A DNA stretch of 64,000 nt. It comes from Kofleriaceae bacterium. GTDB lineage: Bacteria; Myxococcota_A; Polyangia; Haliangiales; Haliangiaceae. Positions 1-33,679 of the stretch are shown here, piece by piece (within the stretch, counting starts at the first letter, position 1; every line of letters begins with the position of its first letter). The translations under genes were made by a program, and so were the position numbers. The notes below the pieces were generated by a model. It ran no database searches. It worked only from the letters and a program-made list of their open reading frames with translations, and was not told the DNA's origin. The DNA is taken from positions 609,664 to 673,663 of the forward strand of contig CAXNMK010000002.1 in assembly GCA_964203225.1 (NCBI GenBank), read 5' to 3'.

Positions 1-941
1 GGCCGCCACTCGTCGACACGTTCTTCACGAACGTGTTCTCGTACAACGGCACGGCATGGACCGCGAACGCATCGACCGGCCATCCCTCGGTGCAGAGCGC
101 GACGATGGCGTACGACTGGGTCGCGAATGGGCTGGTCACGTTCGGCGGCGCGATGCCGGCCTCGCCGTTCACGAACTTCGACACGACGTGGGTGTGGAGC
201 CTGACCGGCGGCTGGCAACAGCGACCACCGGCGACGACGCCACCCGCGCGACGCGGCGCGCAGAGCGCCTACGATCCGGTACGCAAGCGCACCGTCATGT
301 TCAGCGGCAATCCCAGTGGCGGCGGCAGCATCGCGGACACCTGGGAGTGGGACAACACGAACTGGACGAACATCACGACGTCGACGGGCCCGAACGACCG
401 GATCGGCGGGCTCCTCTACTACAACTCCGACGCCGCGAAGGTATGCGCGTTCGGTGCGTCCGGCGGCCTCGCGAGTGAAGACCTGTGGGAATGGAATGGC
501 ATCGAGTGGACCGAGCGCATCGTGCTCGGAGCCATCCCCTCCAAGTACAAGACCGCCGCTGCGTACGACGCGGCGAACAAGGAGCTGCTGGCGTTCTCCG
601 GGCGAGACGCCGGCGGATCGGGCGGGCCGACCCAGGGCACGGTCATGCTCCAGTACCGCCCCAACGTGCCGGTCGAGACCTGCACGTCGGCCGATCTCGA
701 CTACGACAACGACGGCAAGCTCGGCTGTGCCGACGAGGAATGCTGGTCGGTGTGCAAGCCGCTGTGTCCGCCGGGCGTCACCTGCGCGCCGACCGCACCC
801 CGATGCGGCGACTCGACGTGCAACAGCCCCGTCGAGGACTGCAACATCTGTCCAGGTGATTGCGGCGCCTGCGCTGGCAAGTGCGGCGACTTCCATTGCG
901 ACACCGGCGAGACCGCCGCGCTGTGCCCCAACGACTGCTGA
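1..941 (+). CDS. Kelch/beta-propeller-like secreted protein with Cys-rich C-terminal module; 5' end lies outside the window
   Basis: The ORF is open to the window start and stops at 939-941. It has repeated W-x-W / GG / DxWEWD blades (TWVWSLTGGW, TWEWDNTNW, DLWEWNGIEW). The C-terminus carries about 20 Cys (CKPLCPPGVTCAPTAPRCGDSTCNSP...CPGDCGACAGKCGDFHCD), typical of myxobacterial Cys-rich repeats. Confidence 0.6.
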   Translation, partial: PPLVDTFFTNVFSYNGTAWTANASTGHPSVQSATMAYDWVANGLVTFGGAMPASPFTNFDTTWVWSLTGGWQQRPPATTPPARRGAQSAYDPVRKRTVMFSGNPSGGGSIADTWEWDNTNWTNITTSTGPNDRIGGLLYYNSDAAKVCAFGASGGLASEDLWEWNGIEWTERIVLGAIPSKYKTAAAYDAANKELLAFSGRDAGGSGGPTQGTVMLQYRPNVPVETCTSADLDYDNDGKLGCADEECWSVCKPLCPPGVTCAPTAPRCGDSTCNSPVEDCNICPGDCGACAGKCGDFHCDTGETAALCPNDC

Positions 942-4038: not shown

Positions 4039-5078
4039 GAAGCATCCTGATCATCGGCGTGCTGGTCGCGAGTGTGGGCGCCGCGAGGGCTGTCCCGGAT
4101 CAGCCCGCTTCCAAGAAGCCGGTCGAGCAGGTCGATCCCAAGCCGGTCGAACCGACGCCGGAACCGCCAGGCGACGCCGAGCACAAACCTTGGTACGACG
4201 GGGTTCCCGAGGCCACCCAGCAGCAGGCGCACGTCATCTTCGCCGACGGCAACACGCTGTTCTCTCAGCAGCAGCACGCCCCTGCGCTCGAGAAGTACCG
4301 CGTCGCGCTCGCGTTGTGGGAGCACCCGCTGATCCGCTTCAACCTGGCGGTGACCGAGATCCGGCTCGAGCGTGTCCTCGAGGCGGCTGACGATCTCGAG
4401 AAGGCGCTCCAGTTCGGAGCCGCGCCGTTCACGCCCGAGCTCTACCAGCAAGCACTCGACTATCAGTCCCTGCTCAAGGGCCGGGTCGGCTACATCGAGG
4501 CATCGTGTACCGCTCAGGCCAGCGTGCAACTCGACGGCAAGCAGTGGTTCAGCTGTCCCGGCACCAAACGCGTACGCGTGATCGCGGGCGAGCACACGCT
4601 CGTCAGCGAGCGACCGGGCTACCTGACCAACTCGCGGCGGGTGGTCGTCCCGGGTGGCAAGACCATCACCGAAAAGCTCGTGGTCGTGTCGATCGAGTCG
4701 GCGGTTGTCCTGGAATACCCCTATCGTCAATGGATCCCTTGGACGATCACCGCGACCGGCGCCGCGATCGCCCTCGGCGGTGCGGGGTCGTGGTTCGCGG
4801 GCAGGAACCAGATGACCGAGTTCGATGCCAACTTCTCACGCGCCTGCACGGTGACCGGCTGCGAACCGGATCTCTCACAACATCCCGCCTTGCGTGATCA
4901 GCGCGACTCCGCGGCATTCAAGGGCACCGTCGGGATCTCGCTGATGGTCGCGGGAGGTGCCGTCGCGGTCGGCGGCCTCGTGATGGCGATCATCAACCGA
5001 CCGAAACGGATCATGCCGAACATCGAGGTCACGCCGACCGCCGACGGGATCAAGACGCAGGTAGGCTGGCAGTTCTGA
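4035..5078 (+). CDS. PEGA-domain / TPR-like membrane protein, translationally coupled to the kinase-NTPase
   Basis: A GTG start overlaps the upstream stop (GTGA). It has a signal peptide, a helical TPR-like region, a PEGA-like block (RVRVIAGEHTLVSERPGYLTNSRRVVVPGGKT) and two C-terminal TM helices. Confidence 0.7.
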   Translation: MRSILIIGVLVASVGAARAVPDQPASKKPVEQVDPKPVEPTPEPPGDAEHKPWYDGVPEATQQQAHVIFADGNTLFSQQQHAPALEKYRVALALWEHPLIRFNLAVTEIRLERVLEAADDLEKALQFGAAPFTPELYQQALDYQSLLKGRVGYIEASCTAQASVQLDGKQWFSCPGTKRVRVIAGEHTLVSERPGYLTNSRRVVVPGGKTITEKLVVVSIESAVVLEYPYRQWIPWTITATGAAIALGGAGSWFAGRNQMTEFDANFSRACTVTGCEPDLSQHPALRDQRDSAAFKGTVGISLMVAGGAVAVGGLVMAIINRPKRIMPNIEVTPTADGIKTQVGWQF

Positions 5079-6196
5079 TGAGTGTCTGGCGTGGGTTGGC
5101 CATGGCGTTTGGACTCGTGGGCCTGGTGGGCGGCTGCAAAGGTGACCCGGACCCGACGCCGCAGCCCAAGCCGCTTCCGGGTCATTCCATCGCAGCTGTC
5201 CGCGCGCCACGACCGAGACTGTCGCAACGCGTCTTGCCGCAGCTGCCAACTCTGCCGCTCGCGGATGATCCCCGGCGCGCCAACAAGATCGCCCTCGGTC
5301 ACGCGTTATTCTTCGACAAGCGGCTCTCGGCGAACAGCGATCGCGCGTGCTCGTCGTGTCACGAGGCCCCGCGCGGAGCGAAGGAGACCGCTGGCGGTCC
5401 CGATCCGATCGCGATCGGATCGGGTGACAAGCCGCTCTCGCGACACGCCCCCGCGTTGTGGAATATCGCGTATGGACAGGGCGCATTCTACTGGGACGGT
5501 CGGGCGACCACGCTCGAGGCGACCACGAAGGCCGAGTGGCGCGGTCCTGCCATGGGCATCGGTGACAGGCTCGACACGAAGGCGGCCGCACTCGCCGCGA
5601 TTCCGGGCTACAGGAAGTTATTCGCCGCCGCGTTTCCCGGCGCGCCGATCACGGCGGAACAGGTCACGCAGGCGCTGGCCGAGTACGAGCGGACCCTGCT
5701 CTGCACCACCACGCCATACGACCGCTTCGCCGCTGGCGACAAGGCCGCGCTCACCGATCAGCAGCAGCGCGGCCTCGACCTGTTCCTCGACAAGGGCCAG
5801 TGCCTGAGCTGTCACGCCCCACCCTACTTCTCGACCGCGATGGGCCTCGATCCGGCCAGCAACACCGTCGGCTACCAGAACGTCGGGATCGGGACCGACC
5901 GCGCCGACGACAAGGTCGACCTCGGCCGCATGGCCGTGACCGGTGCCGCGATCGACTGGGCCGCGTTCAAGCCGCCGAGCCTGCGCAACGTGACGAAGAC
6001 CGCGCCGTATTTTCACGACGGTTCCGGCGCGACGCTCGATGCGGTCGTGCGGACCATGACGACCGGTGGGATCGCCAACAAGAACCTGAACCCGGCGATG
6101 ACCGACCGCGGCTTCACGGATGCCGAGCGCGCCGATCTGATCGCATTCCTCGGTGGCCTCGAGTGCCCCGACGCGGTCGTCGCAACGCTGCCGTAG
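5078..6196 (+). CDS. di-heme cytochrome c peroxidase (CCP/MauG family) lipoprotein
   Basis: The ATG overlaps the previous stop (TGATGA). It has a lipobox (LVGLVGGC), two CxxCH heme motifs (CSSCH at 5349, CLSCH at 5803) and the C-terminal LIAFLGGL signature. Confidence 0.85.
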   Translation: MSVWRGLAMAFGLVGLVGGCKGDPDPTPQPKPLPGHSIAAVRAPRPRLSQRVLPQLPTLPLADDPRRANKIALGHALFFDKRLSANSDRACSSCHEAPRGAKETAGGPDPIAIGSGDKPLSRHAPALWNIAYGQGAFYWDGRATTLEATTKAEWRGPAMGIGDRLDTKAAALAAIPGYRKLFAAAFPGAPITAEQVTQALAEYERTLLCTTTPYDRFAAGDKAALTDQQQRGLDLFLDKGQCLSCHAPPYFSTAMGLDPASNTVGYQNVGIGTDRADDKVDLGRMAVTGAAIDWAAFKPPSLRNVTKTAPYFHDGSGATLDAVVRTMTTGGIANKNLNPAMTDRGFTDAERADLIAFLGGLECPDAVVATLP

Positions 6197-6717: not shown

Positions 6718-7983
6718 CTAGCGCATGAACCGCAGGCCGACGCCGAGCACGAGCGCGCGGCCGCCGTACGACGCCGCCATGGTGTCAGGGCTGCTGTCGG
6801 GACTGGTGGTCTCGCGGCGCAGGATCCACAGGTGCTCGGCGAACGCGTCCGCGCTCCACGCGGGCGACACCGCGTAGCTCGCGCCTGCGGTCAACCCGAG
6901 GCGGTGGCCGTCGGGCGTGGTCGGCGACAGCCGGGAGGTGGGCACCGGCGACGGATCGACGTAGCCGCCGCCGCGGATCACGAGCCGGCGGTGCATCCAC
7001 TCGACGCCGGCGCGCACGCCCGTGGTGTTGCCCCAGTCGTTGCGCTGGACGGCGGTGTCGGTCGCGGCGCTCGCGAACGTGATGGTGGTGGCGCGGTTGA
7101 CGCTCCACCGCGTGTGCTCGACGTCGACGAGCGCGGTCATCGCGCTGCGCCGGTAGCGCGCGCCGAGCACGATCACGTCCGGCATGGTCATCGTGGTGCG
7201 CGCGGTCTGATCGGGCGCCTTGCCGGCGAACGCATCGGGCGTGGTGAAGTTCGCGTTGCCGTCGAGGTCCAGGTGGGTGCGGCCGCGGTAGGTCAGGGCG
7301 AGCGCGAGGTCGGCGCGCGGGACGTAATACGCGGAGGCGTCGAGGCCAACGCCGGTGCCATCGAGATCGAGGCGGACGTCGCCCTCGGCGTCGATGAAGT
7401 CGAGGTTGCGCGCGACCTGGAGCCGGGCGACGTCGAGGTGCACGCCCACCGCGAGCCGCAGCCGGCCGAGCCTGCGCGCGACGAACGGCGCCGCGCGCAG
7501 CACGCGCAGGTCGGACGCGACTGCCTCGGTGGCGCCCGGCCAGGTCGCCGGCCACGCCACGCCTCCACCGAACGGGACGCCCACGCTGATGCCCCCCGCC
7601 CACGCACCCTGGGCGAGGCTGGCGTCGAGGTGCGGTGGCGTCGACCACCGGCCCTCGCTGTCCGTGGTCCACGCGCCATCCGCGGCGCGCGCGGTGATCT
7701 GCGGTCGCGCGAGCACCAGCGACAGGCCGAGCCGCAGGCCGCCATCGTCGGCGAGCGCGGCCGGGGCGTGCCAGGCGGCGCCCGGATCGTCGTCGCGCCC
7801 GGCGCCCGCGCCGCCGGTGCCCGCGGACACCGCGGTCTGCTGGCCCACGGCGGTCCCGCCGGCGTGCGCGGTGCCGGTGAGGCCGAGCACGAGGGCGAGC
7901 GCACCCACGGCCGCACGACCCGGAACCCGGCCGTCCCGCGGGGGCCACCCGGCGGGCGCCGCGCCTGCATCGAGCGCGCTCAC
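6718..7983 (-). CDS. FadL/OmpP1-like outer-membrane transporter for hydrophobic compounds
   Basis: The GTG start at 7983 overlaps the stop of the upstream lipase (GTGA). It has a signal peptide (AAVGALALVLGLTGTAHA), amphipathic beta-strand periodicity and a C-terminal ...GVGLRFMR. The long Arg-rich extension of the 6718..9975 ORF was rejected. Confidence 0.65.
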   Translation of the reverse strand: MSALDAGAAPAGWPPRDGRVPGRAAVGALALVLGLTGTAHAGGTAVGQQTAVSAGTGGAGAGRDDDPGAAWHAPAALADDGGLRLGLSLVLARPQITARAADGAWTTDSEGRWSTPPHLDASLAQGAWAGGISVGVPFGGGVAWPATWPGATEAVASDLRVLRAAPFVARRLGRLRLAVGVHLDVARLQVARNLDFIDAEGDVRLDLDGTGVGLDASAYYVPRADLALALTYRGRTHLDLDGNANFTTPDAFAGKAPDQTARTTMTMPDVIVLGARYRRSAMTALVDVEHTRWSVNRATTITFASAATDTAVQRNDWGNTTGVRAGVEWMHRRLVIRGGGYVDPSPVPTSRLSPTTPDGHRLGLTAGASYAVSPAWSADAFAEHLWILRRETTSPDSSPDTMAASYGGRALVLGVGLRFMR

Positions 7984-17707: not shown

Positions 17708-18835
17708 GTGATCCGCCCCGCTCATGTTGCGCTGCTCGCGGCCCTGGCCGCGTGCGGCAGCGAGTCAGACCCGCTGTCCGAGGCCGACGCAGGTCCGGGC
17801 GCCGACGCACCCGCCGACGCGGCCGTCGATGGAATCGCGCCTCCGGAGATCTACCCGGACGCGGCGGCGCCCGGCGACGGAGACACCGCCGTGGACATCG
17901 CGGCGACCACGACGGCGATGTTCCGCATCGACGTCGAGCCCGATCAGCACGTCGGCGTCCACCTCACGTTCGCGCCGCAGCCGGGCGTCGTGATGGCGGT
18001 CGAGCGGTGGGACGGCATGGCGCCGACCACGATCGGCCAGACCGACGCGGGGATCGGGCGGCGCGTGCTCGCGGTGCGGGATGCCGAGGTGCGCCGCACC
18101 TACTGGGTCCGGGTGACCGCGGGACCGGCGCCGCTCGTCGGTACGCTCGCGGTGACCCGCACCGCGTTCGAGGACGGCACCGCGTGCGCGTCCGACTGCG
18201 CCCGGCTCCTCCAGCTGCCGCTGGCCAACGACCCGGCCCACGACGGCTACGCGACCGACGCCAGCACCGTGTTCCGGTACTGGTTCGGCCGCCGCGATCT
18301 GGTGATGTTCGTGCGCGCCGCCGGCCGCGCCCAGGCCACCGCCGGGCGCCAGCCGTTCGTCCCGCAGGATCTGTCGCAGTGGGATGGCGCGACGCCGGGG
18401 GCGGACGTCGGTGCCCCTCGCCATGCCTCGCACCAGCGCGGCAAGGACGTCGACCTGTCGGTGTATGGCACCGATGGCCTCGCGCCGTGGCGCAGCTACT
18501 GCACGACCACCACGACCAGCGGCGGCCGTGAGTGCGTCGCGGGCTCGGCGCGTGACTTCGGCGGCCAGGCCACCGCCATCGCGCTCAGCACGATGTTCGC
18601 CACCGGCCGCGTCACCATGAGCTTCCTCGACCGCGAGCTGATCGACCAGCTCGTCCCCGGCGCAGAGGCCGCTGCGGCCGGCGGTGCGCTCGCCCCGTCG
18701 CTGGTGCCACTCTACGGCGACGGCCAGCACGTCCAGCACTGGCCCAACCACGACAACCACATCCACATTCGCGTCAGCGAGGACACGGCGGCCAGGCCCG
18801 CGCCGGGCGCGGTGGCGCCGTTCGAGGCGCCGTGA
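17708..18835 (+). CDS. LAS-family metallopeptidase lipoprotein (MepA/M74-like murein endopeptidase)
   Basis: It has a lipobox (LAALAACGS), the motif HASHQRGKDVDL and a C-terminal HDNHIHIRV (HxH), matching the Zn ligands of MepA-like enzymes. A GTG start is proposed at 17708. Confidence 0.55.
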   Translation: MIRPAHVALLAALAACGSESDPLSEADAGPGADAPADAAVDGIAPPEIYPDAAAPGDGDTAVDIAATTTAMFRIDVEPDQHVGVHLTFAPQPGVVMAVERWDGMAPTTIGQTDAGIGRRVLAVRDAEVRRTYWVRVTAGPAPLVGTLAVTRTAFEDGTACASDCARLLQLPLANDPAHDGYATDASTVFRYWFGRRDLVMFVRAAGRAQATAGRQPFVPQDLSQWDGATPGADVGAPRHASHQRGKDVDLSVYGTDGLAPWRSYCTTTTTSGGRECVAGSARDFGGQATAIALSTMFATGRVTMSFLDRELIDQLVPGAEAAAAGGALAPSLVPLYGDGQHVQHWPNHDNHIHIRVSEDTAARPAPGAVAPFEAP

Positions 18836-18903
18836 TCCGACGCGCGCGCTGACGCCGCGACGCCGGCAGGGCGCGCTGGACTCCCGCGCTCGCCTGGGTC
18901 TTG

Positions 18904-19134
18904 TCAGGGGACGTCGACCGACCGCGCCTCGATCCGGTAGTCCCCGTTCGTCTCGTACACCCGTGCATCGATGATCAGGTCGATGCAGCCGGACTCCGCG
19001 GTCCACAGATCGACGAACCGACCCCCGCGGAGCTCGTCGAGTGCCTGCCGTGGCTCGAGCCCCAGGACGGGCATGTTCAGTGGCCCGCGCATGCGCGTGC
19101 GACGGTGGCCGATCTCGCGCGGAGGCTGGGCCAT
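18904..19134 (-). CDS. small hypothetical protein (about 76 aa)
   Basis: The C-terminal 76 aa of the 18904..19323 ORF have normal composition. The ATG shares the palindromic CCATGG with the divergent gene. The start could be an internal Met. Confidence 0.35.
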   Translation of the reverse strand: MAQPPREIGHRRTRMRGPLNMPVLGLEPRQALDELRGGRFVDLWTAESGCIDLIIDARVYETNGDYRIEARSVDVP

Positions 19135-19813
19135 GGCGTTTAGGCGCACGACCTCGCCCGAGGTGATGCCCGCGCCGGACGATCTCACCGCTCGCATGGT
19201 GGGGATCGGGATGAACATCGCCGCGGCGGCGCAGCCGGACGCCGACATCGAGGGCACGCTCGTGTTCGCGTCGGCGCTCGGCATGGACGACGGTGATCTG
19301 CGCGTGCTCGCCGTGCTGACCACCTGGCTCGGTGTTCATCACGCGCACGTCAACGCGGACCGGCTCGTGCGCCTCGTCGGTACGCATCCATCGGCGCGCG
19401 TCCGCGCGTACTGGGCGGCTGTCGCGACGTGGCTCGCGAAGGATCGCCGGCTCGCGCGCCTCGCGGCCGCACACACGGGGGACCCGATCGACCTGCTGCC
19501 CACCGGCACGGCGTTCCAGCTCGAGCGGCGCGGCGCGGACCCGCGGTTCCAGGGCGGAGCGCTGCGCGTGCCGAACGGCACCATGCGCGACCGGCCCGCG
19601 GACGTGCTGACCCCGGAGGCCCTGGTGCGGCGTCACGCGGGCTACCGCAACCGCGTGCTGATGGGCCCGTCGTTCCGCGCGGACGTGTGGACCGCGCTCG
19701 AGCGCGCGCCCGACCTGTCGATCACCGAGGTCGCGCGGCAGGCCGCGTGCTCGTTCGCGACCGCCTGGCAGGCGACCCAGGACTACCGGCTGCTGCGCGC
19801 CGCGGGCCGTTGA
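19133..19813 (+). CDS. hypothetical protein with an HTH-like C-terminus
   Basis: It reads MAFRRTTSPEVMPAPDD... to the stop at 19813. The C-terminal LSITEVARQAACSFATAW looks HTH-like. The upstream part of the listed ORF is Arg/Ser-rich and was rejected. Confidence 0.45.
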   Translation: MAFRRTTSPEVMPAPDDLTARMVGIGMNIAAAAQPDADIEGTLVFASALGMDDGDLRVLAVLTTWLGVHHAHVNADRLVRLVGTHPSARVRAYWAAVATWLAKDRRLARLAAAHTGDPIDLLPTGTAFQLERRGADPRFQGGALRVPNGTMRDRPADVLTPEALVRRHAGYRNRVLMGPSFRADVWTALERAPDLSITEVARQAACSFATAWQATQDYRLLRAAGR

Positions 19814-19856
19814 GTGGGCAGGTCGGTCATCGGCGGGTGGGGGCCGGGCGTGCACC

Positions 19857-20079
19857 GTCTCTGCGGAGACGTCGCCGACCGTCTCCGCGGAGACGTCGCC
19901 GAACCACATTCGGGTAGGCACGGCGCGGGGGGCAACGGGGTCCGGCGAAACCAACACAACCATCTGTGGATAACTCGCCACGTGCGCCGACGCAGCGAGT
20001 TGCCGACGCGGACCGTCTCCGCGGAGACGTCGCCGATCGTCGTCGCGTGCAGGCCGCCCCGCAACGTCTCCGCGGAGAC
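19857..20079. repeat. four copies of a 23-bp element containing the 14-bp perfect palindrome GTCTCCGCGGAGAC
   Basis: Copies are at 19857-19878 (one mismatch), 19881-19902, 20015-20036 and 20066-20087. The first two are tandem. The core is CGTCTCCGCGGAGACGTCGCCGA. Confidence 0.85.
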
Positions 20080-20218
20080 GTCGCTGAACGTCATCCGGGC
20101 GACGGTGCTGGCACCGGCGGTTCGCGCGGGCGTGATGCCCGCGCAGGGCGCGTGCTAGCGTTCATGGGTGAGCGCGAGCGCCCGCGCCGCGGATGTGCGC
20201 CGCGGCGGGACGCGGTCG

Positions 20219-21550
20219 ATGACACGCGCGTGGTGCACGCTCGTCGCCCTCGCGGCGTGCTCGAGCCCGGCCCCGCGGTCGCCCGCGCCACCGGCGCCGT
20301 GGACCGACGCGTGGATCCTCGCGCAGGCGCCGACGTACCTGGCCGACACCGCCGGGCGGCGCGCCGCGCTCGAGGCCTCGCTGTCCAACCCAGGAAATCT
20401 CTATGCGCGCCAGCGGCTGATGTCGTACGGGCTCGGCGACCGCGGCTGGGACCTGCTGCCGGCGTGGAACCCGCGCTCGCGGCCGGTGACCGCCCTGCTC
20501 GCCGCCACGCTCGCGACCGGTGACATCCCCGCGCTGCCCGACGACGCTCCGCCGCTGTGGGACGGCACCACGCCGACGACGATGGCGGCGTGGGTCGCCC
20601 TCGGCAGGCGCGTGTTCCTGGGCTACCCGATGCGCGCCGAGGTGTTCATGGAGTACGGGCTGACCGAGCCCGCGCTCGCCGCGTCCGTCGGCATCGAGCG
20701 CGCCGCGACCGGCGATGTCCCGGGGCTGGTCGTGTTCGCCGACGTCGGCGAAGAGGCGCGGGTCGGCATCACCTGCGCGATCTGCCACGCGAGCGTTCAG
20801 GGCGGCGAGGTCGTGCTCGGCCAGGCGCGGCGGAGCTTCGACTACGGCCGCCTGCGCGTCACCTACGACCGCGTGCACGCGGTGCCCGTCGATCCCGAGG
20901 AGGCGCGCCGGATGGCGGCGTGGGGGCCCGGGCGCGCGGACGTGACCGAGGACTCCGACGAGGATCCGGTCGCGATCCCCGATCTGTGGGGCCTGCGCGC
21001 GCAGCGCTGGCTGACGGCCGCCGGGACGATCCGCCACACGTCGCCGCTCGCGCTCGCGATCCGGCAGGAGACGCAGCTGATCGACTCGAACCACCAGCTG
21101 ATCCGCCCGCCGCGCGAGCTCGCGTGGGCGCTCGCGATGTTCCTCTACTCGCTGGCCCCGCCGGCGCGCGTGCCCGCGACGGCGTCACCGCTGATCGCGC
21201 GGGGCGTGCAGCTGTTCGCGGCGCACTGCGCGTCGTGCCACGCGAACGCAGCCGGAGGTGGCGGCGTGATCGCGGCCGCGCGGATCGGCACCGATCCGGC
21301 GCTCGCCACCGGGCGGGGACGTGGCACGGGCACGTACCGGGTGCCGGCGCTGCTCGGCGTCGGGGCAGGCGCGCCGTACCTGCACCAGGGCGCGGTCGCC
21401 TCCCTCGACGAGCTGCTGTCCCCGGCGCGGTTCGCGGCGGACCATGCCGGCGGAACGCGCGGGCCGGGCGCGATCCTCGGGCATGACGCGGGCACGGACC
21501 TGGGCGCCGATGACCGCGCGGCGCTGATCGCGTTCCTCGAGACGCTGTGA
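20219..21550 (+). CDS. di-heme cytochrome c peroxidase-like lipoprotein
   Basis: The ATG at 20219 gives MTRAWCTLVALAACSS (lipobox). Two CxxCH motifs are present (CAICH at 20773, CASCH at 21227). The C-terminal LIAFLETL matches the CCP family and the gene at 5078. Confidence 0.8.
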   Translation: MTRAWCTLVALAACSSPAPRSPAPPAPWTDAWILAQAPTYLADTAGRRAALEASLSNPGNLYARQRLMSYGLGDRGWDLLPAWNPRSRPVTALLAATLATGDIPALPDDAPPLWDGTTPTTMAAWVALGRRVFLGYPMRAEVFMEYGLTEPALAASVGIERAATGDVPGLVVFADVGEEARVGITCAICHASVQGGEVVLGQARRSFDYGRLRVTYDRVHAVPVDPEEARRMAAWGPGRADVTEDSDEDPVAIPDLWGLRAQRWLTAAGTIRHTSPLALAIRQETQLIDSNHQLIRPPRELAWALAMFLYSLAPPARVPATASPLIARGVQLFAAHCASCHANAAGGGGVIAAARIGTDPALATGRGRGTGTYRVPALLGVGAGAPYLHQGAVASLDELLSPARFAADHAGGTRGPGAILGHDAGTDLGADDRAALIAFLETL

Positions 21551-22246
21551 TCAGGTCTTGACGTTGGGCGGCAGGATCGTCGGCGCGGCGATGTGCACGT
21601 CCTTCGACACGGTCTGCGCATCACCACCGACGGTGACCGTGGCCTTGACCGTGTACGTCAGGTCGTGCCGCCCCACGGGGTTCAGCGACGGCTGCGACAG
21701 GACGTAGCTGACGTTGAGCGTCTGCCCCGCGGCGATCGACCCGCCCCACGGCTGGTACGCGCCCTTGGCCACCGACCACACGCGCGGCGACTTCGCCGTC
21801 AGCACGCCGAGCGCCGCGCCGCTGTCGTCGAACAGCTCGACCTTCTTGACCCGGAGCGTCGTCGTCTTCGCGCCGGCCGCCGCGGTCGCCGACAGCTGCA
21901 TCGACGTCTGCTCGCAGCGCCGGCTCTCGCGCTTCGCCTTGGCCGTGGGTTCGTACGGCGCGTCGGCCTTGGCGCGCGCACCAGAATCCAGCGCCGGATT
22001 CTGCTGCGACGCCGGCATCGACGCCGTCCTCGGCGGGGGCGGCGCCGCGAACGTTGGTGCGCTGGCGGGCGCCGCGCCGCCGCAGTCATCCGCCAGGGTC
22101 GCGGCGGTCATCACGACCGTGATCTTGGGCGCGGGCGCCGGCTTGCGCGCCGGCGCCGGCCTGCTCGCGGGCGGACGCGCCACCTGTTCGGCCATCGCGA
22201 CGTTCGCCGCCAGCATGGCCACACACCACACGGAAACCTTCAGCAT
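21551..22246 (-). CDS. secreted hypothetical protein (231 aa)
   Basis: It has a signal peptide (MLKVSVWCVAMLAANVAMA), an Ala/Pro-rich linker and a beta-rich C-terminal domain. It is convergent with the CCP gene. Confidence 0.55.
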   Translation of the reverse strand: MLKVSVWCVAMLAANVAMAEQVARPPASRPAPARKPAPAPKITVVMTAATLADDCGGAAPASAPTFAAPPPPRTASMPASQQNPALDSGARAKADAPYEPTAKAKRESRRCEQTSMQLSATAAAGAKTTTLRVKKVELFDDSGAALGVLTAKSPRVWSVAKGAYQPWGGSIAAGQTLNVSYVLSQPSLNPVGRHDLTYTVKATVTVGGDAQTVSKDVHIAAPTILPPNVKT

Positions 22247-22383
22247 CCCGCAACGCTAACACCGCGGCGGGCGCGGGGCCCGGCCGAACATCGGCAGCCT
22301 GGGAGATCAAGGCCCGGTCGATGTTCGATCGACAGGCTCTGCCGGGCGGCCCGCTGCGCTCCGGTCCTCCGCGCCGTGGCGAG

Positions 22384-22397
22384 GTCTCCGCGGAGAC
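22384..22397. repeat. fifth copy of the GTCTCCGCGGAGAC palindrome
   Basis: An exact 14-mer lies in the divergent promoter region between 22246 and 22518. Confidence 0.85.
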
Positions 22398-22517
22398 GTG
22401 CATGGATCGCGTCGGCCCGCGCGCACTTCGGCCCGGCGGACCTTGCGCCGCGCGGACTTCGCCCGCGCGCCACCCGGTCGCTTGTGACCTGCGCCGGGGC
22501 GGCGCAGACTCGGAGGC

Positions 22518-24941
22518 GTGCGTGGACACCTCTCCCTGATCCTGCTGCTCGCGGCCTGTGGAGACAACGCGGCGTCGGGGCCGCCGGTGCTCGTCGCGGA
22601 TCCGGCCATCGAGATCGGCTGCGTCCCGCACGTGGAGGGTCGCGCGCGCGTCAAGGTCGTCGCGTGCGCCGAGGAGCTCGTGCCCGGCGCGCTGGCCGCG
22701 GGCCGCGTGGGGGACTTCGTCCTGGAGAACGGTCGCGTCCGCGTGATCGTGCGCGGGCCCGGCGCCGGTTACTACCTGCATGGCTCGTCGGGCGGCGGCA
22801 TCGTCGACGCGGTCCGCACGACCGCGGACGGGACGAGCGAGGATCTCGTGAAGGAGTTCCTGCCCGCGATCGATCTCGCGGTCGGGGCGTTCGACGAGTT
22901 CGTGATCACCGAGGCCGGCGACGATGGCGCGGCCGAGCTCGTGGTGCGCGGCCGCGTTGCGCCGCTCGAGCTGATCGCGGCCGTCGGGAGCCGCGAGCTG
23001 CCCGACGTCCTCCTCGAGCACCGGTACCGCCTCGCCGCGGACGCCTCCGCCATCGAGCTGACGACGCGTACGTACGAGCTCGGTGGGGCGGCCGCGAGCC
23101 ACGACCTGTACGACGCCATGTTCACCGGCGGACGCGCGCCCGCGTTCATCCCGGGCCTCGGGTTCGTCGGGGGTCAGGTCCGCGGCGAGCTGATCGCGAC
23201 CGCGGGCACCACGACTTCGTACGGCCTGGTCTACGCGGACTCCGCCGGCCTGATCGACCTCGCGGGGATCCGCCTCGTGCAGGGGCCGGCGGTCGACCAG
23301 GTCGGGACGACGCGGCACCTGGTGATCGGCGACGGCACGGTCGAGGACGTGACCCGGCAGGCGTGGGCGCTGCGCGGCACCCCGACCGTCGCGCATGCCG
23401 TGCGGGCGCCGGCCGGCCTCGATCTCGTGGTGCTCGACGCCGCCGATCGCGTGGTCACCATCGCGCGCGCAGACGCCGCCGGGGACGCGACGATCACCGT
23501 TCCGACCGATGCCGGCGCGCTCCGCATCCAGGTTCAGGCGATGGGCTACGCGCCGGTCGCGCCGGTCGCGCTCACCGCCGGCGCCGTCGTGGCGCCCGGG
23601 GCGAGCGGGACGCTCGCGATCTCCGTGCGCGACGACGGCGGCGCCCCGCTCCCCGCGCGCGTCACCATCGAGTCGCCCACGGCGGAACGTCGCATCCTGT
23701 GGACCGATGCCTCGGGCGACCTGCGCGTGCCGCGCGTTCCGGGTACGTCCACGGTCGCGATCTCGCGCGGCCTCGAGTACGACGCGTTCGTCGCGAGTGC
23801 GGTCACCGTGGCCGACGGCCAGACCGCCCCGGTCGCGGCGATCCTCGAGCGCGTGGTCGACACCGGCGGCTGGATCTCGCTCGACACGCACCTCCACTCG
23901 GAGCTATCGACCGACTCGACGTTCCCCGTCGATGATCGGCTGCGCGCGGTCGCCGCCGAGGGCATCGAGGTCCCGGTGTCGACCGACCACGACGTGATCA
24001 CGCCGTACGGCCCCATCATCCGCGCGATCGGGCTCGAAGCGTGGCTCGGCGATCTGATCGGGTCGGAGGTGTCATCGCTGATCTGGGGCCACCTCAACGG
24101 CTTCCCGCTCACGCCCGATGGTGATCGCACCGGCAACGGCAGCCCGAGCTGGCTCCTGCGCACCCCCGCGCAGGTGTTCACCGCGATCCGCGATCGGGGG
24201 CCCGGCGCGATCGTGCAGGTCAACCACCCGCGCGACGGCTCGACGAGCCTGTTCAATGCCCTCGATCTGAACGCCGCCACCGGGCTCGCCGGCGCCGATC
24301 CGGTGGCGCTCGGTCTCCCCGCCGGCACGGACCTCTCGGACCTCGGCTTCGACGCCGTCGAGGTCGCGAACGCGTCGTCCGAGAGCGACTTCGAGGAGGT
24401 GTTCGTCGACTGGCTCCAGCTCGTCAGCCTCGGCCACCCCGCGTGCGCGACGGGCTCGTCCGACTCGCACGGCCCGACGGCATACGCGGGCGAGGCGCGC
24501 ACGTACGTCTACGTCGGGCCCGGCAACGACGATCCGCGGACCGTCGATCAGGACGCGATCGTCGACGCGATCCGCGCGCGGCGCGTGGTCGTGGGCACCG
24601 GCGCGTTCGTCACCGCGGGCATCGAGACGACCGGAGGCACCACGCTGCCCGGGGACACCGCGGTCGTCAGCGGCGAGGTCCGCCTGCGGATCCGGGTCCA
24701 GGCCCCACCCTGGCAGCCGCTGCAGCGGATCCGCATCTACCGCGGCGCCGCCGAGGTCCAGGTCATCGAACTCGCCCCCGCGGACACCGCGGCGGTCCGC
24801 TACGATCAGGTGGTCACCCTCCCGCTGCCGCCGGCCGACACGTTCTACGTCGTCCGCGTCGACGCGACCGGATCTGGCGCGCCGGTCAACGACAGCGCGA
24901 TGCCGTCGTTCACGAACCCGCTGTTCGTCGACGTACCGTAG
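22518..24941 (+). CDS. large lipoprotein with a C-terminal PHP / CehA-McbA-type metal-dependent phosphoesterase domain
   Basis: It has a lipobox (LILLLAACGD). The motif LDTHLHSELSTDS at about 23881 and a downstream STDHDV are PHP-like metal ligands. The protein is 807 aa. Confidence 0.65.
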   Translation: MRGHLSLILLLAACGDNAASGPPVLVADPAIEIGCVPHVEGRARVKVVACAEELVPGALAAGRVGDFVLENGRVRVIVRGPGAGYYLHGSSGGGIVDAVRTTADGTSEDLVKEFLPAIDLAVGAFDEFVITEAGDDGAAELVVRGRVAPLELIAAVGSRELPDVLLEHRYRLAADASAIELTTRTYELGGAAASHDLYDAMFTGGRAPAFIPGLGFVGGQVRGELIATAGTTTSYGLVYADSAGLIDLAGIRLVQGPAVDQVGTTRHLVIGDGTVEDVTRQAWALRGTPTVAHAVRAPAGLDLVVLDAADRVVTIARADAAGDATITVPTDAGALRIQVQAMGYAPVAPVALTAGAVVAPGASGTLAISVRDDGGAPLPARVTIESPTAERRILWTDASGDLRVPRVPGTSTVAISRGLEYDAFVASAVTVADGQTAPVAAILERVVDTGGWISLDTHLHSELSTDSTFPVDDRLRAVAAEGIEVPVSTDHDVITPYGPIIRAIGLEAWLGDLIGSEVSSLIWGHLNGFPLTPDGDRTGNGSPSWLLRTPAQVFTAIRDRGPGAIVQVNHPRDGSTSLFNALDLNAATGLAGADPVALGLPAGTDLSDLGFDAVEVANASSESDFEEVFVDWLQLVSLGHPACATGSSDSHGPTAYAGEARTYVYVGPGNDDPRTVDQDAIVDAIRARRVVVGTGAFVTAGIETTGGTTLPGDTAVVSGEVRLRIRVQAPPWQPLQRIRIYRGAAEVQVIELAPADTAAVRYDQVVTLPLPPADTFYVVRVDATGSGAPVNDSAMPSFTNPLFVDVP

Positions 24942-31021: not shown

Positions 31022-33480
31022 TCACCCCGTGGGGAGCGCGTGCCCGTTCGAGGGGACCGTCCGCGCCTGGACCCGGGCGATCACGCCCTCGAGCGGCGTG
31101 CCCGCGAACACCTTGTCGATCACGTCGGTCAGCGTCTTGCCGCCGACGAACGCCTGCACGCTCATCGCCTCGGCGACCTTGGCGAGCGTGTCCGCGTTGG
31201 ACAGCGCCAGCAGCGCCTCGCTGAACCCACCCTGCGCGGCGCCGAACCGGGCCACCGCGGCGTCGACCTCCGCGCGCAGCGCCTCGAGCACCAGCCCCTG
31301 GCGGGCGCGCGCGATCGCGCCCTCGTGCTGGGCGCGCGCCTGATCCCGCGCGAGCTGGGCGCCGTGCTCGGCATCGACGATCGCGCTGCGGGCGAGCGCG
31401 GCCTCGCGCTGGCGGGCGGCCTGCTCGAGCTCGGCCGCGAGCTGCGCGAGCCCGACGCGCAGGCGATCCCCGGTGGCCGCGACCTCGAGCTCGGCGAGCC
31501 GGCGGCCGGTGTCCGCGCGCGCCTCGGCCTCGCCGCGCGCGATCGCCTCGCGCCGCGCGGTCAGCTCGAGGCCGCGGGTGGCGCGCAGGAGGTTGATGCT
31601 GGCCTCCACGGCCTCGTGCTGCGCGTCGCCGAGCAGCGCCGCGATCGCTGGGTCCTCGATGTCGACGCCGAGCACCTCGACGTCGGTGACCCGCATCCCG
31701 ATCTCGGGGAACCACATCCCCGGACGTACGACGGGCATGACGTCCGTGACGTCCGGCGCGGTGGACGGCGCAAGAGCGCGCCCGAGGATCGCGTCGCGCA
31801 CGAGATCCACGGCGTGCGCGTAGAACCCCTCGATGGGGTGGCGCTTGGCGCTGCCCTTGAGCACCGAGCGCACGTGATCGCACAGCAGCTTCACGTAGTT
31901 CTCCACCTCGAACCAGCGCGCGGGCTCGCCCTCGAACGACACCCGCATCGCGTAGCCGAGCGCGACCTCCACGTGATCGGCGGTCTCGACCACGCAGCGA
32001 TCGCTGACCTTGTTGCCCAGCACCCGCAGGTACACGGTCTCGACCAGGCGCTCGGTGGTCTTGGGCGTGCCGGTGGACAGCTGCACCATCTCGAGGGTCT
32101 CGTCGTACGCGAGGATCAGGTTCTGCGGCCCCTGCTCCACGCGCCGGCGGCCCTGCTTGTCGACGACCATCACCGCGTAGCCGACCCACACGCCGACCGC
32201 GGGCGCGCCCTCGAACCGGGTGTCGATCATGAGCGTGCGCGGCTTGGTGAACGTGTTCGAGCGGTCGACCGCCTCGAACGAGGGCGCGGTGGTGCCCGGC
32301 GCGTGCGCGGCCTCGGCCGGGACCGGCGCGCCATCGGCGTGGCGCAGCGCGCGGTTGTGCGCGAGCACCTCGGCGTTGCCCGGGTACCAGGTGGCGCACT
32401 CGCGCGCGGTCAGGGCGCGGCGGACGATCACCTCCTCGACGGGGTTGGGCAGCAGCATCGCGGGTCCGCGCACCGTGCGGATCGCGCCGGTCTGCTTGTT
32501 CATCACGTAGCGCGCCTCGCCGGCGGGGACCGCCACCGCGAAGTGCTTGTCGTGCCCGTCGGAGCGCACCAGCGCGTGCTCCTCGCGCGGGAAGTAGATC
32601 GCGGTCTGCTTGCCGGTGATGAACAGCTCGTCGCCGACGTGCCGGGCCACGCCGTCCTCGGTGTACGGGGCGATCACCTTGACGTGCAGGCCCTGGATCT
32701 CGGACAGCTCGATCGCGCGGAACTTGCGGGCGCCGCCCTGCGTGATCACCGCCTCGGTGGGCGCGGGGAACACCACCTGCGGCCCGCGCTCGTAGCGCTT
32801 CTTGCCGCTCTCGTCGACGAGGATGCAGTACTCGAGGCGCTCGAGCGTGAGCGCCTCGCGCACCCACGCGCCGGGCTCGTCGGGCACCACGCCCACGCCG
32901 GTCGGCGGGATGTAGAACGACACGTCCGTGCCCTTGATCAGCAGCAGCTTGCCGACGGTGAGGTCCGCGGGGACGCGCACGACCGGGGCGCCGCATCGGG
33001 CTCCCCGGCCGCCGGCTTGATCACCGCCTCGCCCCAGCTCCGGCGCGCCTCGTCCTCGTTGTAGACGCGCACGAGCAGGTACTGGTTCGAGCGCAGGTGG
33101 TGGCCCTGCACGAGCTGCACGAGCTGACCGGGCCACAGCGCGAATGCGCACGGGCCGGTGATGTTGATCTTGCGGCCGACGAGCAGGTCCGGCGACGGGT
33201 ACACGCCGCCCGCCGCCGGGTGCTCCTGCTTGGCGGCGGGGTTCTTGAGGATCAGGTAGAAGCCCTCCGGCGCGATCGCGATCTGCTGGACCGCGTCCTC
33301 GAGGGAGCACGGCGCGAACTGCTTGGTGTCCGGATCGAACACCACCGGCCGCTCCTGCGCGGTCGGGTTGATCACCGTCGGGCCGGTGTACGTCTTGACG
33401 ATCCCCTTGGTGACGTCTTGCATGTAGGCGTACTCGGTCGGGGCGAGGACCAGATCGCGCTTGGTGGTTCGGTCGTCCAT
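31022..33480 (-). pseudogene. major vault protein (MVP) homolog; apparent 1-nt frameshift near 32985-32992 (a C4 run where a C5 run is expected)
   Basis: The gene starts with ATG at 33480 with a GGAGGG SD. N-terminal MVP repeats are present ([49 protein letters not shown]...YLLVRV). The reading frame then shifts by one and continues with the shoulder-domain hallmark VVETADHVEVALGYAMRVSFE (compare MVP [22 protein letters not shown]) and an Ala/Glu/Arg-rich cap-helix-like coiled coil. The total is about 815 aa across two frames (ORFs 32938..33759 and 31022..33559). Confidence 0.8.
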
Positions 33481-33679
33481 GCGTTTCCCTCCGTTCAAGA
33501 ACGTGACCAGCCGCAGGTGCGCGAGCGCCCGTGCCGCACGAGCCCGGGCGCTGCTCCATCGGCGAGCACCTGCGTCAGCGTGGAGCGGCCTGCGCCGTGC
33601 TGGCGCAGCGTCCCTCGTCCTGGCGCTGATGCACCGGCATGGCGGATCGTCGCGGCGTCGATCGCGGTTCGATCGCGCG

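Follow-up and report, generated by a model that had tools for sequence, protein, structure and literature searches.

Several systems of short repeats are close enough to the locus analysed here to serve for comparison. The BOX elements of Streptococcus pneumoniae (boxA-boxB(n)-boxC) join fixed modules to a sub-unit of variable tandem number; they are intergenic and gene-adjacent, form structures, and carry no transposase of their own. The MIRU/VNTR loci of Mycobacterium consist of 40-100-bp tandem units between co-oriented genes, with copy numbers that vary among close relatives and unit lengths that are mostly multiples of 3, giving rise to short spurious ORFs. Enterobacteria and Pseudomonas harbor extragenic palindromes (REP/BIME/REPIN) that are capable of forming hairpins and are sometimes hit by other mobile elements. 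A fixed period with a perfect inverted repeat in each unit characterizes both the 43-bp sopC repeats of the F plasmid and the MetJ metbox arrays (metbox, AGACGTCT), MetJ being a gammaproteobacterial protein.

The repeat described here lies in a 64-kb stretch of a Kofleriaceae genome (hereafter, the window) and resembles each of these systems in part. It can be likened to BOX in having a fixed module, a tandem sub-unit of variable number, structure-forming potential, and an intergenic position beside genes without a transposase of its own. This is a functional analogy only: the two have no sequence relationship, phylum and GC content differ, and the window repeat has few copies in one variable region, a perfect palindrome as its core, and no identified terminal boxC-like module. 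Tandem unit size, placement, variable copy number, and spurious ORFs recall MIRU; unlike MIRU, however, the repeat has a palindromic core and an 84-bp head, the 50- and 51-bp spacings seen among relatives preserve no frame, and there is no homology. Every window unit contains AGACGTC, which agrees with the metbox at 7 of 8 bases. Identity with a metbox was dismissed on taxonomy, and in contrast to the sopC and metbox arrays, the window repeat has no Par-, Sop-, or MetJ-type partner gene, varies in copy number among close relatives, and includes a copy that is decaying (copy 5).

The palindrome itself, the 14-mer GTCTCCGCGGAGAC, has four exact occurrences and a fifth with a single mismatch, and all five sites fall inside 2.5 kb of the window (Table 1). 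The preliminary description had reported five such elements in two promoter regions, and we arrive at the same count. Each copy occupies intergenic sequence ahead of a gene start. A mismatch search combined with a unit profile detected neither exact nor diverged copies elsewhere in the window (61 kb). Allowing up to two mismatches, GTCTCCGCGGAGAC gave 6 matches against 1.62 expected, a number reached in 0 of 100 shuffles. Perfect 14-nt palindromes number 21 in the window, against 20.6 expected under a Markov model; among these, only GTCTCCGCGGAGAC recurs, and a multiplicity of at least four arose in 2 of 200 simulations. The longer 23-mer CGTCTCCGCGGAGACGTCGCCGA is found on the plus strand at 19856 (one mismatch), 19880 (none), 20014 (none), and 20065 (one), and on the minus strand at 22376-22398 with three mismatches (CGTCTCCGCGGAGACCTCGCCAC), whereas the shuffled window contained no match to it. 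The fifth copy does lie in a divergent promoter region, as first reported, between the secreted-protein gene (21551-22246, minus strand) and the PHP lipoprotein gene (22518-24941, plus strand), but its orientation is opposite to that of the other four.

Table 1. Coordinates of the repeat modules and of the adjacent genes in the 64-kb window.
Feature	Position	Strand	Remarks
226-aa conserved hypothetical protein, HTH-like C-terminus	19133..19813	+	mobile DUF6036 + ~230-aa pair, second gene
Copies 1-2, 24-bp short units in tandem	19854..19902	+	palindromes 19857-19870 (1 mismatch) and 19881-19894
84-bp head module, GGGGTCCGGCGAAACCAACACAACCATCTGTGGATAACTCGCC...GAGTTGCCGACGCGGA	19927..20010	+	from BLAST and alignment; single-copy in the window
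Perfect DnaA-box consensus TTATCCACA, within the head	19965..19973	-	conserved in all head copies of L126 and L127
51-bp alpha unit, copy 3	20011..20061	+	palindrome 20015-20028; second half is a decayed 24-27-bp unit
Terminal beta unit, copy 4	20062..20108	+	palindrome 20066-20079, within the 18-bp perfect palindrome ACGTCTCCGCGGAGACGT
443-aa di-haem cytochrome c / RoxA-like lipoprotein (earlier "second CCP")	20219..21550	+	cytochrome c / RoxA-like models only
Copy 5, inverted	22376..22398	-	palindrome 22384-22397; divergent intergenic region of 271 bp

Examination of the sequence around each site revealed a longer unit with a defined orientation, 24 or 51 bp in length, in which the palindrome forms the unchanging core. 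The basic unit of ~24 bp corresponds to CGTCTCCGCGGAGACGTCGCCGA plus one base; its tandem arrays take the form of 24-bp repeats for copies 1-2 (period 24, 2.0 copies, and 96% matches by TRF) and of 51-bp double units with a decayed second half for copies 3-4 (TRF reports period 24, 4.0 copies, and 67% for 20007-20104). In the window, two short units are followed by the head and then by two further units. The pair formed by copies 1-2 begins 41 nt past the stop codon of the 226-aa gene; copies 3 and 4 are 51 bp apart (about five helical turns), and copy 4 is 132 nt upstream of the cytochrome c start codon. Similarity among copies is not limited to the palindrome but extends into one-sided flanks (GTCGCCGA..., up to ~30 nt). 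Conserved flanks had been reported before; in copy 5, the flank is conserved only in part. Since these flanks are oriented and non-palindromic, and the tandem periods are 24 and 51 bp, the copies appear to be related by descent from one unit. The head, which begins with GGGGTC, was also considered as a Tn3-type inverted repeat or TIME and rejected, as no inverted partner occurs in the window or in L126.

Two neighboring genes required closer attention. The gene downstream of copies 3-4 had been named a second cytochrome c peroxidase; that name does not hold, given that the product lacks a CCP_MauG domain, which is present instead in the gene at ~4898-6196. The earlier placement of four copies 140-360 bp upstream of this gene is correct if translation starts at ATG 20219, a start that agrees with the 443-aa database protein P0001. 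Upstream of the repeat, the DUF6036 gene that would precede the 226-aa gene has been deleted from the window except for its last ~115 nt (19018-19132). The 226-aa protein has no sequence match in the PDB, and a structure model of mediocre confidence (pLDDT 66) yielded only weak local HTH matches in a fold search. The DUF6036-pair operon has its own conserved promoter together with a separate inverted repeat, GGTATCGG-N5-CCGATACC, in L126, L127, L131, and L133. As a binder of the palindrome, the 226-aa protein was rejected by inference: its 80-82% orthologues have no palindromes nearby, and their operon carries this different inverted repeat. A Pfam scan of the neighboring genes and window ORFs returned no transposase, Y1/RAYT, integrase, recombinase, Rep/Par protein, or plausible local regulator.

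Comparison with close relatives (87-97% nucleotide identity to the window) revealed that the layout of the repeat is variable. In L126 and L127, the same cytochrome c gene is preceded by the head and by copies 3-4, spaced 50 bp apart; copies 1-2 are missing. L128 lacks the head and has three 51-bp units straight after the 226-aa gene. L126 contains three copies of the head in a 4-kb span (5794, 7503, and 9181), always in the same orientation, and palindrome units follow at two of the three sites; head copies, paralogous and orthologous alike, are 92-97% identical. One L126 head copy is 97% identical, yet its palindromic units have decayed beyond recognition. Copy 5 is absent in L129 and L134, both of which retain the two flanking genes, and is degenerate in L130, where the substitutions are asymmetric and none is compensatory. 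More generally, variants of the palindrome in relatives break pairs, and no compensatory change was found among them. At cytochrome c orthologous loci of 76-79% identity (L124 and L125), there is neither an intergenic region nor a copy, and the DUF6036-pair orthologues of the more distant relatives L131-L133 have no palindromes alongside. Outside this locus, ~45 kb of relatives' sequence contains zero copies.

Against this variability, copies 3 and 4 are well preserved. The copy 3 orthologue is invariant in L126 and L127, copy 4 is conserved in L126, L127, and L134, and the two copies with their immediate flanks are invariant in all three, whereas the 35-nt spacer between them differs at ~20%. 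The intergenic region as a whole is 92% identical to that of L126, compared with 86-87% at third codon positions. Because the cores are invariant beside a diverged spacer, and the region exceeds third positions in identity, these alignments suggest that the palindrome cores of copies 3-4 are under constraint or evolve in concert. The region is also a hotspot of gene-content change, with TA-type modules inserted or deleted in relatives, although rearrangement breakpoints relative to L126 are mostly not at palindromes. Assemblies of relatives break at the repeat, with an N-gap right after a palindrome in L126 and a contig end 22 nt before one in L134. In L128, the third palindrome is the insertion site of a group II intron (RF02005, 140 bits); for some introns of this group (class IIC), a position 3' of a terminator or another inverted repeat is described as typical (PMC1702495).

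We favor, with somewhat better than even confidence, the interpretation that the five sites belong to a small, fast-changing, modular intergenic repeat that varies in copy number and is restricted to one narrow group of Kofleriaceae-like myxobacteria, similar in kind to BOX, MIRU, or REP. The sites would be the invariant palindromic cores of this repeat, attached to the 84-bp head, rather than an independently selected set of protein-binding sites. The family would spread and change by local duplication, for which replication slippage, unequal recombination, and gene conversion among copies are candidate routes, the last of which would in addition maintain identity among the cores. Effects on neighboring genes would probably be incidental and exerted through structure: the pair formed by copies 1-2 could, as a long GC-rich hairpin, stop or stabilize the transcript of the 226-aa gene, and copies 3-4 would fall within, or close to, the promoter or leader of the cytochrome c gene. 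Copy 5 is an isolated inverted unit undergoing decay. The variable layouts in relatives, the duplication of the head at several intergenic sites in L126, the decay of copy 5, and the lack of distant copies all count for this interpretation, as do the shared oriented flanks and tandem periods, the lack of further copies in the window, the lack of mobility, Rep/Par, or local regulator genes nearby, the assembly breaks, and the intron insertion in L128. Counting against it are the constraint or concerted evolution of the cores of copies 3-4, the folding of single copies no better than shuffled sequence, and the lack of compensatory changes; moreover, a loop-free perfect palindrome of 14-18 bp would be expected at a dimeric DNA-binding site sooner than in a hairpin element, and the recurrence of the core across phyla (see below) could mean that a protein recognizes it.

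The strongest competitor, which we nonetheless regard as unlikely, holds that the sites are operators of a symmetric dimeric factor encoded elsewhere, with copies 3-4 acting cooperatively on the cytochrome c gene and copy 5 on the secreted-protein/CehA-like pair. A spacer-free palindromic core, the intergenic location of every copy ahead of a gene start, the invariance of copies 3-4 in three relatives while the spacer diverges, and conservation exceeding that of third codon positions are all consistent with it. The pattern of loss is not, as close relatives that keep both genes have lost copy 5 or carry it in degenerate form, copies 1-2 are specific to the window and lie just 3' of a stop codon, and more distant orthologues lack copies. 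The one-sided flanks and tandem periods point to unit duplication, there is no adjacent candidate regulator, and the neighboring HTH protein has a different conserved operator. Conservation and the shared flanks likewise speak against the regulon that the preliminary description offered as one of two alternatives, linking the peroxidase gene, the secreted protein, and the PHP lipoprotein. A sigma-70 promoter scan beside the palindrome sites found none, and no canonical sigma-54 promoter accompanies them either. Activation from an upstream site by a sigma-54 enhancer-binding protein was rejected in its own right, as neither intergenic region has a canonical -24/-12 promoter and TGGCAC varies in relatives. 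The window has a TGGCAC 30 nt after copy 4 and an enhancer-binding-protein gene at 50926-53103. For copies 3-4, an operator role is possible, judging from their conservation.

A role in RNA is improbable. Under such a role, copies 1-2 and the L128 array would be selected as U-tract-less terminators or 3' stabilizers of the 226-aa transcript, and copies 3-4 as structure in the leader of the cytochrome c mRNA. Copies 1-2 can indeed fold together to give a stem of 16 bp (-34.2 kcal/mol, z -4.6) shortly past a stop codon, the L128 array likewise directly follows that stop codon, and the group II intron sits at a palindrome. Single copies, however, are unremarkable hairpins that fold no better than shuffled sequence (z ~0 to -2), a terminator scan of 19600-22700 gave 0 terminator-like sites, and no palindrome copy is followed by a T run. 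A terminator would also be senseless for copy 5, which lies between two divergent starts, and the variants in relatives disrupt pairing without compensation. With Rfam 15, no match in the window attained the gathering score, and only chance-level matches (E ≥0.23) were obtained for 19000-23000.

A classical high-copy REP/REPIN family dependent on a RAYT-type transposase for its mobility, with one cluster happening to lie in the window, seems distinctly improbable. The elements are palindromic, extragenic, and repeated, assemblies of relatives break at them, and paired copies of the core are dispersed as composite elements in other phyla. In E. coli, REP density is ~1 per 8 kb, and at a similar density ~8 copies would be expected where the other 61 kb of the window has 0, as does the ~45 kb from relatives; the window thus gives no sign of high density. 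Unlike REP/BIME/REPIN, the repeat is a loop-free perfect palindrome with no GTAG/CTAC foot, its units are direct tandem repeats and not inverted doublets, and no Y1 transposase or RAYT is present among the window ORFs scanned. The earlier suggestion of a REP- or MITE-like dispersed repeat was nearer the mark than the regulon but likewise inexact; the behavior is that of a local, modular tandem repeat joined to an 84-bp head. The 14-mer appears in no indexed paper found by our literature search, which also found no myxobacterial REP literature.

Occurrence outside the lineage was assessed by scanning 185,579 GTDB species representatives with the 20-mer, which returned 87 scattered stretches. 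Among those listed, nearly all are single matches and many lie in coding sequence, as exemplified by an HNH/DUF222-like gene ('RVSAETSRRLACDA'). No genome had more than ~4 exact 20-mer matches, and none had clusters, among the matches listed (80 of the 87 stretches), which again speaks against a REP/REPIN family. The same 14-16-mer does recur, paired and non-coding, in unrelated metagenome contigs from high-GC phyla, with 36 contigs showing the paired pattern, and a composite palindrome-22 nt-palindrome element is found in at least 11 different contexts. In L108, a YefM/RelE cassette lies between paired copies of the palindrome. No relevant match came from collections of plasmids, phages, and viruses.

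This recurrence invites the view that the 16-bp palindrome CGTCTCCGCGGAGACG is the recognition site of a dedicated DNA-binding or recombination protein, within a cassette-shuffling or site-specific regulatory system. We give that view very little credence; it draws on the paired recurrence across phyla, the flanking of YefM/RelE in L108, and, in a region of TA-module exchange, the bracketing of the cytochrome c and secreted-protein gene pair by inverted palindrome copies. Least credible is an iteron, origin, or centromere-like array (sopC-style with a DnaA box), or a set of recombination sites bounding mobile cassettes: direct tandem repeats with an internal palindrome, a perfect DnaA box in the head, the TA-module hotspot, the inverted bracketing, and the L108 pairs are in its favor, but no rep, par, integrase, or recombinase gene is among the window ORFs scanned, the DnaA box is single (the sole match at up to one mismatch in 64 kb against 1.25 expected, not significant by itself), cumulative GC skew makes no turn, breakpoints relative to L126 are mostly away from palindromes, no attC-type GTTRRRY core is present, and the plasmid, phage, and viral collections are without a match. 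An origin deduced from the DnaA box was rejected for the same single box, unturned skew, and missing rep gene.

The ORFs created by the repeat were also considered. Three of them, 19783-20094 (-), 17765-19981 (-), and 19814-20158 (+), contain DVSAET or VSAETS, so the spurious DVSAET ORFs first described are real. A coding repeat was rejected: the copy pairs, 134 bp apart, are mutually out of frame, relatives, with their 50-bp spacing and an indel of 29 bp, do not maintain the frames, and the DVSAET-containing ORFs have no family matches.

If the modular-repeat interpretation is true, the locus would add one more small, lineage-specific intergenic repeat family, the practical value of which is limited. 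It would explain the spurious DVSAET ORFs and the assembly breaks in related metagenome contigs, and it would mark a locally unstable region that has experienced gain and loss of TA modules and insertion of a group II intron. As a VNTR-type marker, the repeat could also be used to tell strains of this Kofleriaceae lineage apart. The finding would carry greater weight if copies 3-4 were an operator pair for the RoxA-like cytochrome c gene, or if the palindrome were recognized by a protein across phyla.

The palindrome GTCTCCGCGGAGAC occurs exactly at positions 19881, 20015, 20066, and 22384 of the window (~74% GC) and with one mismatch at 19857; these sites, numbered copies 1-5 by position, bear out the preliminary description of a recurring family. 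Allowing up to two mismatches gives six sites where 1.6 would be expected, and not one of 100 shuffles gave as many. Perfect 14-nt palindromes number 21 in the window (20.6 by a Markov model), and GTCTCCGCGGAGAC is the only one that recurs. The 23-mer CGTCTCCGCGGAGACGTCGCCGA matches the forward strand at 19856, 19880, 20014, and 20065 with zero or one mismatch; its single reverse-strand match (22376-22398), where none is expected, carries three. Copy 5 is thus present as described, but it is inverted and shares its flank only in part. A search of the 64 kb with a profile built from all units retrieved no additional diverged copies. A two-mismatch version, GCCTCCTCGGAGAC (53856-53869), lies ~750 bp upstream of an FHA/sigma-54-activator gene (50926-53103) and is probably a chance occurrence, given a unit-profile E value of ~1 or worse. 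ORFs encoding DVSAET peptides are present and, as had been supposed, appear spurious, having no family hits and reading frames that are not kept in relatives.

Coordinates of features in the window, at related loci (L126-L134), and on metagenome contigs (L108, L123)
Feature	Position	Description
Gap with four forward-strand copies	window, between 226-aa gene (19133-19813) and cytochrome c ATG	405 bp
Copies 1-2	window, from 41 nt past stop codon of 226-aa gene	24-bp tandem pair, 96% identical
84-bp segment (head)	window 19927-20010	separates copies 1-2 from copies 3-4
Copies 3-4		51 bp apart
Di-haem cytochrome c / RoxA-like gene	window, ATG 20219	443 aa
18-bp tandem repeat	window 22124-22173	2.8 copies, 5' part of secreted-protein gene
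15-bp tandem repeat	window 22415-22469	GCCCGCGCGGACTTC, 3.6 copies, adjoining copy 5 in divergent intergenic region
Major vault protein-like ORF	window 31022-33574 (-)	~850 aa; MVP_shoulder 2e-18, Vault_3 2e-6; unusual for a bacterium
DUF6036 two-gene module	window 19018-19813; L126 7860-9169; L131/L133 5372-6696	
AbiEii-type nucleotidyltransferase + 83-aa gene	L129 8307-9070; L134 1510-2393	insertion
Group II intron	L128 5202-6057	RF02005 group-II-D1D4-6, 140 bits, 5289-5505; RT ORF from ~5797
Palindrome pairs around candidate toxin cassette	L108 1497-2290	~40 nt shared flank
Triple palindrome	L123 1499-1550	19-bp spacing

Tandem Repeats Finder resolves 20007-20104 into four decayed 24-bp units, so the 51-bp unit is a double one. 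The head contains a perfect DnaA-box consensus, with no second one in the window. The gene downstream of copies 1-4 had been labeled a second cytochrome c peroxidase; 20219-21550 matches only Cytochrom_C/RoxA-like_Cyt-c, CCP_MauG being absent there and present in the gene at ~4898-6196, and the label does not hold.

The window comes from a Kofleriaceae-like myxobacterium, Kofleriaceae MAGs supplying its best named homologues. Close relatives (L126-L130 and L134; 87-97% nucleotide identity to the window) were found by way of the secreted protein, a cluster member of the cytochrome, and the 226-aa protein. L126 and L127 retain the order 226-aa gene, intergenic region, cytochrome c gene, together with the head and copies 3-4 (spacing 50 bp), without the ~110 bp bearing copies 1-2. 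In L128, three units spaced 51 bp apart lie immediately 3' of the 226-aa gene, and the head is missing. The head occurs three times within 4 kb of L126 (5794, 7503, and 9181), in a single orientation; after the copy at 7503 come palindrome units and, beyond them, a gap in the assembly, and the head at 5794 is 97% identical to that of the window, with the adjoining unit region decayed past recognition. L134 retains copy 4. L130 has a degenerate copy 5 (GACTCCGCGGAGAT, forward strand of L130) whose changes are not compensatory; copy 5 is absent from L129 and L134, though both flanking genes are retained there. No palindrome is found at the more distant loci L124, L125, and L131-L133. The L124 and L125 cytochrome c orthologues (76-79% identity) overlap the upstream gene, so these loci have no intergenic region; L131-L133 carry DUF6036 plus ~230-aa pairs (80-82% identity) in different genomic contexts. 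A scaffold gap in L126 (7644-7653) lies directly past a palindrome and the L134 contig begins 22 nt upstream of one, which suggests that assemblers break at the repeat in related metagenomes.

The region around the repeats is structurally unstable. A module pairing a DUF6036 nucleotidyltransferase with a ~230-aa HTH-like protein, highly conserved (73-94% amino acid identity, 961 homologues) across unrelated genomic contexts, has the 226-aa gene in second position. Most of the DUF6036 gene has been lost from the window, where homology to the pair begins at 19018; the last ~115 nt remain and the second gene is orphaned. At all four loci examined, a conserved TTGACG promoter and the inverted repeat GGTATCGG-N5-CCGATACC lie just 5' of the module's start codon, and with its unrelated contexts these give the module a resemblance to a toxin-antitoxin pair. 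In L129 and L134, the AbiEii-type insertion, which the window lacks, sits at the 3' end of the cytochrome c gene, reducing it to 423 aa, and separates it from the secreted-protein gene. The L128 group II intron starts right at the third palindrome, at a position corresponding to just downstream of window 19813; because its GTGCG directly follows GTCTCCGCGGAGA, the palindrome is, or lies at, the insertion site.

One-sided shared flanks, tandem periods, copy number and arrangement that differ among very close relatives, a head module itself duplicated, and a decaying isolated copy all indicate that the copies descend from one unit through local duplication, rather than being independently maintained binding sites. 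Taken with the instability of the region, these sequence patterns tip us slightly toward a reading in which the elements form a modular intergenic repeat confined to this lineage.

Some observations point instead to operator sites of a dimeric regulator, as the preliminary description had proposed. Copies 3-4 are unchanged across three relatives while their spacer has diverged by ~20%, and the whole intergenic region (92% identity) is more conserved than third codon positions (86-87%). A perfect, loop-less palindrome is also what a dimeric protein would recognize. These points count against a modular repeat, although gene conversion between copies could equally yield invariant copies 3-4. Shared flanks, tandem periods, variable layout, the decaying copy 5, and the lack of an adjacent regulator leave the operator and regulon claim unsupported as stated, and we consider it unlikely. 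The C-terminus of the 226-aa protein is HTH-like (structure model pLDDT 66, weak local matches only), but the protein travels with DUF6036, whose module has a different inverted repeat. Scans at the sites found no sigma-70-like promoter, terminator, canonical sigma-54 promoter, or Rfam family.

A classical REP family is very unlikely, and a low-density dispersed one is conceivable. The REP-like suggestion made earlier comes nearer in modified form, but classical features are missing: a GTAG foot is absent, direct tandem repeats take the place of inverted doublets, and the window ORFs scanned include no transposase. Zero copies lie elsewhere in the window or in the relatives' remaining sequence. 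Among the matches listed, no GTDB representative genome has a cluster of the 20-mer, which falls in 87 scattered stretches, nearly all single matches and many in coding sequence. At L003, L008, L014, L017, L019, L028, L029, L064, L066, L070, L074, and L076, single matches sit in a conserved ORF (Vicinamibacterales, Gemmatimonadota, and others) translating as ...LEDADGLRVSAETSRRLACDAA.VVMRH..., which we take to be typical of DUF222/HNH-endonuclease-type proteins; coding sequence is therefore another source of the palindrome.

Searching metagenomes for palindromes paired at a distance of 8-38 nt gave 36 contigs, maybe no more than abundant hairpin-repeat families there would give. On many of them, high-GC contigs (L088-L122), a composite element, [CGTCTCCGCGGAGACG]-22 nt containing CACGCAATTGCG-[CGTCTCCGCGGAGACG], appears in at least 11 different contexts. 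In L109 one copy falls within a helicase ORF of 1177 aa, in a linker between domains. The spacer of a second class is 24 nt long, CTTGTGCAATATTTCACAAG. The composite element appears to be a hitherto undescribed palindromic repeat of the dispersed kind, and a mycothiol-type enzyme among its neighbors indicates that these contigs are probably actinobacterial. In L108, two palindrome pairs bracket a candidate YefM-type antitoxin/RelE-type toxin cassette, assigned from the encoded sequences. L123, a 42% GC contig from an entirely different organism, carries three exact GTCTCCGCGGAGAC copies. The flanks of the metagenome pairs are unlike those of the window. Recurrence of the core on these contigs could mean that the 16-bp palindrome is the recognition site of a dedicated DNA-binding or recombination protein, which we regard as very improbable.

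As a lineage-restricted modular repeat, the elements would work much like BOX, MIRU, and REP elements, by analogy in function and probably with no homology to any of the three. Any side effects of the repeat are likely structural. Copies 1-2 together can pair into a stem of 16 bp (-34 kcal/mol, z -4.6), whereas a copy taken singly is unremarkable. The elements would then be a commonplace type of feature and modestly interesting.
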